Positions 52,101 to 55,100 of a DNA stretch of 64,000 nucleotides are shown in pieces. Each line of letters opens with the position of its first letter. Positions within the stretch are counted from its first letter, which is position 1. Source of the DNA: Podarcis gaigeae (taxonomy: Eukaryota); NCBI GenBank assembly GCA_964106915.2, contig OZ066918.1; one strand, 5' to 3'. The position numbers and the translations under genes were made by a program. The notes under the pieces are model-generated. The model saw only the letters and a list, made by a program, of their open reading frames with translations, did not search any database and was not told the origin of the DNA.

Positions 52101-55100
52101 GAGTTAATAAGACAGGAAAAGGATATTTAAAGTAGTTAACAGAGAAGCAATAAGTCTTACAAAGCTGGGACAGGGGCTGCTGTCTTCAAATGAACTCAGT
52201 CTGTTTAGGAGTGTGCTTTACATGTTTATAGCTGCTTGTTACTTTACAGTGCTATTGCAGGCAATGGGTTATTGATAGCAATAAAAACTTGTGTTTTGAA
52301 GAGATCTCTTGCCAAATCCTCAAATTGCTTTTTGAAATTGGGACTATAAAAGAGTAGTTTTGAGGTCCTGGAGAGCATTTCTGGAGATGAAATAGATACA
52401 TAAAATGTGTTCTCAAACAGCCATTGAATTAAAACTTTAAAGCCCCTAGCTTGTTGCAGCTAAAGAAAACACATTTTGATACTTTTTTCTGTTTATTTCT
52501 AGGTAGACATAATATGTGGTGATCACCTGCTGGAGCACTATCAGACTTTGAGGGAAATCCAGCGAGCTCTAGGGGAGAGTGCAGTGCAGGTAAGTTGATG
52601 CCAGAACTGCAATGGAATTGCTTCTGGTCTCCTGCCTCGGCCTCCCACACACCCCTTGGGGATATAGCCAAGCACTGCATTTGCTGGGAAAGCTTCTGAG
52701 TTGTGAACCTTTAAGGCAAAAGTGTGCATGAGTCCAGCAGTGGCAATGGCTGAAGTGGAGCGTCTGGCTTTTACCAACAGCAAGTTTGCCTGTGTGTACG
52801 GATGAGCACCTCCCTTTTGTGTGGAAGACACTGGTCCCCACTGTTGTGGGGAGAAATGGTGGAGCAGCACTGTCGAGGCAGGACAAGAGTATTCAAGTAT
52901 AGCAAAAAGGGGTGAAGAGAGACAGGTGTCACGTGCACCAGTTAAACATCATAGCATGTGTTTCTCCTTCTCTTGCTTACCTGTGTGAGGTGTAGCTGTT
53001 GAAGTGGAATGGGGCTGGATGTACATTATGTGTCCAGAGTACCGAGGTGAGATACATATTAGGATTCTGAGATAAGAAGCGTTAGCAATGTGTTCAGGTT
53101 CCCATGTGTGTTTGAGGCCAAGTGCATCTAATGCTCTTTTGATGTGGACAGAGTGGTCACAGAGGGAAATCTTATGCCAGGTCTGGCACTGATGTAAAGT
53201 TACCTGTCAACCAGGATTGAAGAGCTATAAGATACAGCGCAAGTGTGCCCCTCCTCTGTACCATTCTGTCTTGCCCATGACTCCACCCCATTTTGTCTGT
53301 TCTGACAGCATTCTGTTGTGCTGCTGGCATATTTAGAAGCTGGCCAGGATAGCAAGCCTTCAGCCAAATCCTATAGCATCTTAGCCAACAGAACTTAAGT
53401 ATAGGACTGCTTCTTAAGTCTAGCTGAGTCTTCATGTAGTGTTTAAATGGCCAGCACATTAATTTTTAAAAATAAACAAATTTCAGGTATCTGAAGAAGT
53501 GTGCATGCACATGAAAGCTTATACCCAGAACAAACTTAGTTGGTCTCTAAGGTGCTACTGGACAATATTTTATATCGCTACTGGACAATTTTTTAATATG
53601 TTTTGACTGCATCAGACCAACACGGCTACCTACCTGAATCTAAATTTCAGGCTGTTATGGTTTAGAGCGTTGTTGTTTTTAATGAAAGCAGTCTCTCCCA
53701 GTCTAAAGACACAAAAGGGTATATCATGGATCTCCTAGTAGGTTGAGGAAAAGGAAAATTCACCAACTCTGTTATCCTTGGTGAATGTGCTCTGATCTAG
53801 GCATCCTTGCATACTGCAGGCTAAACATGTGCTTCTGCATTCACAGATCAACCCTGCTGAACAGGTGGCTGGCTCTGTCTGCTTTGTATGCACTAATCAT
53901 TTGTTAGGACAGTGGTGGGTAGAGTGTGCATCTGGAATCAGAACTGACAATGCTGATCTTGTACTTTAGCATTCAAGAGTATTGTGCACATAGTGATAGC
54001 GGGTGCTGGGTGCAACCGCTGCCCATTGTAGGGCAGGATTATTTTGCATACTCTGGTCATATCTAGAACAGCAGTCATTGTAGAAGCCTCTTTCTACACA
54101 CGTATTGTCTTTGCTTGGTCTCAGCAGTAATGTAGAATTCTTACCACTTTTTAAAATTGTACAATATAAGGACAATTAAAAATAAAAAAAATAAGATACA
54201 GTTTATAATCTGGTGGCTCTTTTAATCAAATCGGAGGATAGCTTGCTGAATTACTGAATTAAAATAACCTGTTTTACAGGTTGAATTGTTCATTTCTCAC
54301 TTTGGTGCATAAGTGCTAACTTTGCATTCTAGACAAGGTGTCAGAATGAAGTGTAATCAGTAGAGAAAGGTGTTATACAGCAGTACATTTTTTATTTTTA
54401 TTTTTGCTCATAGGTGATGTTTTGTGTGATGTTGTAGATCTTTTCTAGCCAACACATCTCCAACATTTGAACACAGTATATGTCAGAAGAATTCACAATC
54501 ACTGCATTGCCTTTCACACCTAATAGTAGCCTGTCAGGAAATTGTGGCAGACTTATGGCAAGGCTAAACCTATCATAAGGCACCATCTCTGTGTATCCAA
54601 ACTTCCATGCTAGGGCTACATATAAAACTGGCTGATTTCAATGGCTCAGTTCACACCAATTATGCAGGCAAATGGAGGTTGCCAGTTGACTCCCTATGGC
54701 TTTTGTACAGACTTGCCCATAAGTATGGACCAATCCTATATATAACCCCAAAGCAGTGCTTGCTTTTTCATTTACTCCAGCAGTTTGTTTCAGGGAAATT
54801 GCCTTCTATAACACTTTGTCCTGGGATCGAAAGCTGAAGCTTGCTTATGGAGAATGACTCATAGTGTGTTTGCCATCTTCAAAAAAAACATGTACTATAC
54901 TGTACATACAGCGGGAATCTGCAGACGGTCAGGTTTCTCCAATACATACCTAGATGTTCAGGATGATGCATCTGCCATTAACACTTGGCATTTTTGCTAA
55001 GCTGAACACTGGTTTTACTGCAGCAAACGCTGCCTTGTAAAGTGCAAAGCAGCCCTCAAACTTACTGGAGGGAGGATTGGATCCTAAGGAGCCTCTGCAA

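Follow-up and report, generated by a model that had tools for sequence, protein, structure and literature searches.

The host intron and its hammerhead motif

The stretch of DNA analysed here (the window, 64 kb in all) carries a gene of ten exons on the plus strand, as mapped by a splice-site scan combined with translation, which we take to be PCGF6 by likeness to the human peptide; a Pfam search with the 29-aa exon returned nothing. Exon 9 lies at 52503-52589 and exon 10 begins at 55504, leaving intron 9, the last intron, at 52590-55503. A hammerhead motif stands on the sense strand of this intron, about 0.9 kb from exon 9 and about 2 kb from exon 10, and the exon map thereby bears out the placement given in an earlier, sequence-only reading of the same DNA. 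A 2,633-base contig of a relative (relative E), from a run guessed to be RNA, aligns from 55502 on, starting at contig base 966, and the 965 bases ahead of the exon 10 boundary have no listed piece in the adjoining intron, a pattern which fits, weakly, normal splicing at exon 10. Among the listed joint-table matches there was no exon 9-10 joint. The first exon of the gene is acidic (33980-34468, plus strand) and forms a GC-rich head-to-head arrangement with an Ala/Pro-rich first exon at 32339-33061 (minus strand), presumably that of TAF5. The window also contains hairpin-forming, MITE-like short repeats at 15083-15254, 36589-36725, 47981-48430 and 56825-56949, which give spurious miRNA-family matches under the gathering score.

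The motif is a minimal type I hammerhead at 53486-53525 on the plus strand, as judged from its sequence, from a descriptor search set against shuffles and from its isolated fold. Stem I is formed by GGTAT (53486-53490) and ATACC (53521-53525), and between these strands follow the core box CTGAAGA (53491-53497), one extra A (53498), a stem II of 5 bp with a CAUG loop and the closing pair G10.1-U11.1 (53499-53512), GAAA (53513-53516) and GC-U-U (53517-53520, including U17). The predicted cut falls at 53520/53521, and a palindromic AGCU (53516-53519) occupies the place where stem III would stand. Each of these bases had been given correctly in the sequence-only reading. The CUGANGA and GAAA..UH boxes of the minimal core are present (53491-53497, 53513-53516 and 53519-53520) and no core nucleotide is altered; helix I of 4-5 bp, helix II and the unpaired base before 10.1 form with pair probabilities of 0.93-1.0 in the isolated fold, and the palindromic positions 15.2-16.2 (the AGCU) occur without a helix III in the monomer. 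The closing pair departs from the G10.1-C11.1 of the class, being G-U instead, and since G-U is a decay change it lowers the claim of function, not that of descent.

A chance match unrelated to ribozymes would be consistent with the core boxes alone, whose 7 occurrences in the window stand at chance level (shuffle mean 6.09), and with an Rfam scan of the window, which gave 16 rows at E≤5 and no hammerhead among them. The Rfam result is not counted against the motif, because minimal motifs lack helix III. The full descriptor, which adds to the boxes stems I and II, each no shorter than 4 bp, matched once in the window, and only 1 of 200 shuffles held any match (mean 0.005). The same motif also stands at both ends of L054, an element that encodes a reverse transcriptase (RT) and a GIY-YIG domain, and it shows the traits published for minimal hammerheads in the available part of PMC4209133. 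A chance origin is thus refuted by the descriptor statistics and the structure of L054, and its probability is practically nil; the motif is a genuine, worn copy of a known class of Penelope-like hammerheads.

The insertion, its parent family and its sister copy

The motif opens a non-autonomous Penelope-like insertion of 154 bp (53488-53641, plus strand), delimited by alignment to the L054 leader and by a target-site duplication, the 10-mer at 53478-53487 being identical to that at 53642-53651. Its parts are the element leader with the hammerhead, an AT-rich linker in which 23 bp are locally duplicated, and a frame-homologous tail which, in the alignment to the full-length L054 leader, matches the opening ~11 codons of the element's frame. 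Of the two Gs with which stem I opens, the one at 53486, and perhaps the next as well, belongs to the target-site duplication, and stem I accordingly has an apparent 5 bp in the window copy, as against 4 bp in full-length elements. The tail subfamily of the window copy has 447 exact matches genome-wide.

Single-copy contigs of five relatives (A-D and E) pass from the unique flank into the insertion on both sides, reaching 19-27 bases into the element, which is below the 31-base threshold for a bridge. These contigs end at 53506-53510, short of base 53512, and one contig of relative E differs from the window at 61 of 1,638 bases. No empty-site joint occurs among the listed joint-table matches, where repeat contigs dominate. 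Taken together, the contig sequences fit an insertion that would be fixed, tolerated and older than the split of the five relatives.

A search of the window's own genome with the insertion gave 2,826 candidates, of which 40 were scored. Locus L016 holds the motif and a reverse-transcriptase-like frame inside one target-site duplication, and its peptide has 151 matches in the genome. One of four matches fetched in full, L054, carries a frame of 921 aa between two hammerheads 3,010 bp apart, with RVT_1 (449-597, E 9.7e-12) and GIY-YIG (819-867, E 8e-06) in that one frame, which begins 97 nt after the base that opens stem I; in L052 RVT_1 alone was detected. The window insertion is tied to this family by its alignment with the leader and first codons of L054. 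A CX4CxxC linker is present in 4/4 of the long frames fetched, within the CX2-5CxxC form given for Neptune and Nematis elements (PMC8557442, available part). The two hammerheads that flank the L054 frame have the pLTR location of minimal hammerheads, and the family also shows the partial tandem of pLTRs (L054), inverted 5' copies and a tail. The parent would therefore appear to be an EN+ Penelope-like element of Neptune/Nematis type, a placement made by linker and domain traits. [quoted passage not shown] Around the full-length elements lie neighbours in L051 (1649-2569, minus strand), L052 and L053 (6746-9001, minus strand), presumably a vomeronasal-receptor-like exon, a LINE split by a Penelope insertion, and an LTR-retrotransposon-like frame.

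The genome holds a second Penelope-like family (L125-L128), about 40% identical in RT, with frames of up to ~1,000 aa and without the CX2-5CxxC linker in its RT frames; it is probably of Poseidon type. The descriptor found no hammerhead beside its frames at 4/4 loci. For stem covariation, copies of the window's family are too alike, and the second family yielded no motif for comparison.

A sister insertion lies at 50551-50730 (plus strand), composed of an inverted head and a forward arm beginning within stem II, and has its own 10-bp target-site duplication (50541-50550 and 50731-50740). The sequence-only reading had given this sister a C at 11.1, and the C is there; the sister lies in intron 8, not in intron 9. 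CUGAAGA is absent from both strands of the sister, which is a 57-64-bp inverted repeat with a predicted hairpin of -97.8 kcal/mol over 200 nt. A dimer in cis with the sister was rejected, as its substrate strand sits in this long hairpin, and the sister is predicted to be neither a ribozyme nor an available dimer partner. Its inverted arm (50548-50604) is 98% complementary over 57 nt to the window copy (53513-53569), the two flanking exon 9, and their pairing could loop out that exon, but the sister's own hairpin should win. The target duplications at 50541-50550 and 53478-53487 agree in 9 of 10 bases, those of other copies differing widely, and the likeness may be accidental or reflect a preference for certain targets in this locality. 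In L055-L124, about 17 of the 70 forward arms have their first base within the palindromic stem II (+7 to +14) and, like the sister, mostly carry an inverted head; two cDNAs may be joined at the palindrome, or a single one may fold back there. In rotifer elements, palindromes have been described at inverted junctions (PMC3846280, available part).

The closing pair of the window copy can be set against the whole family. Exact intact cores number 11,969 genome-wide, all with G-C at this pair, which confirms that the G-U departs from the family form, as had been proposed. A further 857 cores carry the window's change, C11.1 to T at a CpG (position 53512, plus strand), and 1,089 carry G12 to A at the same CpG, giving more than 13,000 cores when intact and decayed forms are taken together. 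The G12 change is the commoner (binomial p 1.6e-7). Among 87 sampled arms (from a scan of 99 loci, 29 of them chosen for likeness to the window) no columns of the core region are changed as often as 11.1 and G12 (34 and 23 arms), every other column from C3 to the cut site being changed in at most 8. G12 is a catalytic base of the hammerhead, and since the milder change is no commoner than its loss, there is no sign of selection for catalysis in the dispersed copies. On these counts, the G-U pair of the window copy is to be read as neutral CpG decay. The cut base in the family, by summed contig depth, is C in ~70% and T in ~30%, which makes the CUU of the window copy a minority form; U17 is also the weakest of the bases allowed at the cut site.

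The 5' ends of element copies

In 70 of the 447 copies, taken in list order, 18 forward arms begin at -12 to 0 relative to C3, 14 of them at -5 to -2, and 3 begin at +26 to +34, the bin that holds the cut at +30; 34 of the 70 have an inverted piece upstream. Genome-wide, a pattern that demands three non-element bases before the junction places the start of 2,511 arms on the -4 G, with which stem I opens, that of 564 at -5 and that of 18 at the cut site, while 3,807 arms continue upstream of stem I. A control junction at +34 gave 174 matches, and is a poor control, as most of the 100 listed are one-base deletions. At -5 the first 100 listed -4 junctions have 73 G, 16 A and 11 C, T being barred by the pattern, and an extra G was found in 30 of 43 junctions at 40 loci (L131-L170). 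At L132, L148, L157, L159 and L165 the preceding element-derived sequence would, by eye, go on with another base, and at L135 the G separates an 8-bp duplication from the element, which makes it untemplated in these cases; at about six other loci it could derive from the inverted arm.

An extra G copied from the cap is known from other retroelements, and we infer that the G at these junctions is cap-derived. A TATATAAG box lies 31 nt above the -4 G in 11 of 44 upstream-continuing arms, the exact word being absent in 33; this TATA box belongs to the older subfamily, and elements of the younger L054 type carry a weaker TATA-like word in the corresponding position. On the evidence of the junctions, the base that opens stem I is probably the transcription start, and the data suggest that the capped RNA of the element has the ribozyme at its head and is copied in uncut form. 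TATA and initiator motifs have been reported in the pLTR of rotifer elements (PMC3846280), and a TATA-less internal promoter in a Drosophila element (PMC2377424), each as given in the part of the source available. As the chief explanation of the pile-up, a splice acceptor ahead of stem I was rejected, since its AG predicts the -5 junction (564) rather than a -4 junction preceded by an extra G (2,511), and since the preceding bases are variable. An intron ending before stem I is described for a Drosophila element (PMC4209133, available part). No paper on the family's start site or on extra-G junctions was found in the literature as far as it was accessible, the supplements of PMC4209133 and PMC11167929 aside.

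A likely origin of the window copy follows from such a start site. The element's reverse transcriptase would start internally, ~11 codons into the frame, and copy the uncut leader RNA as far as its 5' terminus, the base with which stem I opens; there the G at the cDNA end would match the target's GG and let stem I grow from 4 to 5 bp. The window copy can thus be inferred to be a complete cDNA of an uncut leader. The scarcity of cut-site junctions fits a cutting parent too, since cut RNA might be copied yet fail to integrate. A more far-reaching proposal is that a capped mRNA starts at stem I, 31 nt below the TATA box, and that the ribozyme is a self-decapping switch, such that uncut RNA alone reaches the genome. 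Cutting would then release a capped fragment of 34 nt, which holds an upstream AUG, and end the translation of that RNA. This role is less likely than the start site itself and is, on balance, doubtful. If true, it would give Penelope hammerheads, whose in vivo role has been called a mystery (PMC7761336, available part), a testable self-limiting function; the genomic record, which marks the opening base of stem I as an RNA 5' end and the cut hardly ever, makes the start-site and decapping model testable.

In the L054 leader an AUG in loop II starts a 9-codon upstream frame before the main frame, and a cut there would remove this frame together with the cap. The main ATG is lost in the window's subfamily. 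The AUG of stem II was considered as its start codon and dropped, the frames being mixed: 8 of 23 were in frame, 6 of those with a stop.

Fate of the intronic copy

The sequence-only reading had further proposed that the copy could cut the host pre-mRNA. In equilibrium predictions, which leave out Mg2+ and proteins and are sensitive to the chosen window, the hammerhead-like share of folds is 0.12 for the bare motif (40-60 nt, stem pairs 0.93-1.0), and falls to 2e-5, 1e-5 and 1e-4 with 50, 100 and 200 nt of upstream host sequence; with at least 50 nt of host flank, helices I and II are not formed. The L054 leader gives 0.14, 6e-4, 0.14 and 0.05 at four lengths (0.14 at 177 nt). The predicted dimer of the bare motif joins via stem II, not stem III. 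In read-through pre-mRNA, then, the insertion would be expected to misfold with upstream host sequence, and, without a stem III partner, the copy would probably not cut fast enough to compete with splicing. In the available part of PMC4209133 single minimal hammerheads showed no cleavage and dimers low activity, and in that of PMC11167929 the hammerhead of the anole element PAc cut solely with PAc protein, no RNA-seq reads ending at its cut site. The claim of pre-mRNA cutting is therefore not sustained: the copy is alone, its nearby partner is coreless and hairpinned, it is predicted to misfold, its G-U pair is neutral decay, and the published counterparts are inactive alone (PMC4209133) or protein-dependent (PMC11167929), as far as these sources are available. 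Cutting of PCGF6 pre-mRNA by the window copy is unlikely.

Assistance in trans would be another way for the copy to act, in that it might cut a small share of PCGF6 pre-mRNA only when bound by the element protein or by a second hammerhead RNA, for example in germ cells that express the element. The intact core, the long open frames present in the parent family, the protein-assisted PAc hammerhead (PMC11167929) and the retained AGCU palindrome, which makes a 4-bp stem III possible in trans, speak for such activity; yet PAc needed the first 172 nt of its frame as template, of which the copy retains an equivalent of ~35 nt (PMC11167929, available part), the dimer of the bare motif is predicted to pair by stem II, and the G-U pair, the predicted misfolding and the CUU triplet, as against CUC in most of the family, all weigh against it, leaving assisted cutting improbable. 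Co-option as a cis-acting ribozyme for splicing of the last intron or 3' processing of PCGF6 could draw on the sense orientation, the position in the last intron, the apparent presence of the insertion in five relatives and the precedent of co-opted intronic hammerheads (PMC7761336, available part). Against this, the copy bears the family's commonest decay change, has no stem III and stands among more than 13,000 cores, a neutral fixed insertion would be expected in close relatives too, and the relative-E contig fits, if weakly, normal splicing at exon 10; co-option is accordingly a very remote prospect.

The preferred reading, to which we give a probability of roughly 0.86, is that the window copy, 154 bp long, is the stub of a highly abundant Penelope-like retrotransposon and, within the intron, likely an inert, neutrally decaying passenger. 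Several points run against it: the core is intact and stem I is one pair longer than the family's; the fold prediction is unstable to the window chosen, the L054 leader itself falling to 6e-4 at one length; with the long open frames of the parent, its protein may be available in trans; a dimer partner could, in principle, come from any of thousands of other transcripts; and the relatives' contigs enter the element by just 19-27 bases. If the copy did cut, host transcripts would be potentially exposed to cutting by thousands of sense-strand intronic copies in this genome, but the evidence points otherwise, and the window copy itself is of little weight, being one among many thousands of decayed Penelope hammerheads.

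Comparison with known systems

The comparisons below are with the parts of each source that were available. Minimal hammerheads (min-HHRs) in the pLTRs of metazoan Penelope-like elements were described by Cervera and De la Pena (2014, PMC4209133), who report them in turtle and snakes as well. The window motif resembles them in being of type I without helix III, in the unpaired base between A9 and 10.1, in a helix I of 4-5 bp and palindromic 15.2-16.2, and in that most are dispersed single copies of truncated elements. Its stem II, of 5 bp with a 4-nt loop, is shorter than the 7-8 bp of Schistosoma families, and its closing pair is G10.1-U11.1 in place of the conserved G-C. The nearest lizard counterpart is PAc, a Poseidon element of Anolis carolinensis whose hammerhead and tail were studied by Frangieh et al. 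(2024, PMC11167929); there, too, the hammerhead lies at the junction of pLTR and frame, copies end shortly into the frame, and uncut RNA is apparently the template. The window's family differs from PAc in its CX4CxxC linker (Neptune/Nematis type) and in a frame start that follows the opening base of stem I by 97 nt, whereas that of PAc is at stem II; its cleavage activity is putative. With Neptune-type EN+ elements (PMC8557442) it shares an RT followed by a C-terminal GIY-YIG domain, the CX2-5CxxC linker, pLTRs in partial tandem, inverted 5' copies and a tail, the placement being by traits that do not separate Neptune from Nematis.

Conserved intronic hammerheads of amniotes (PMC7761336) are likewise found on the sense strand of vertebrate introns, yet they are few and highly conserved, whereas the window copy is a decayed, high-copy repeat without the stable helix III which, together with conservation across distant amniotes, marks co-opted hammerheads, and the relatives compared are all close. 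Non-LTR retrozymes (bioRxiv 10.64898/2026.07.22.740005) are also non-autonomous and Penelope-derived with a type I hammerhead, but consist of tandem units each with its own hammerhead, while the window copy is a solo insertion, with one descriptor match in 64 kb. The motif thus belongs to a known class, and the G-C closing pair is the single published min-HHR trait that it has lost, by decay.
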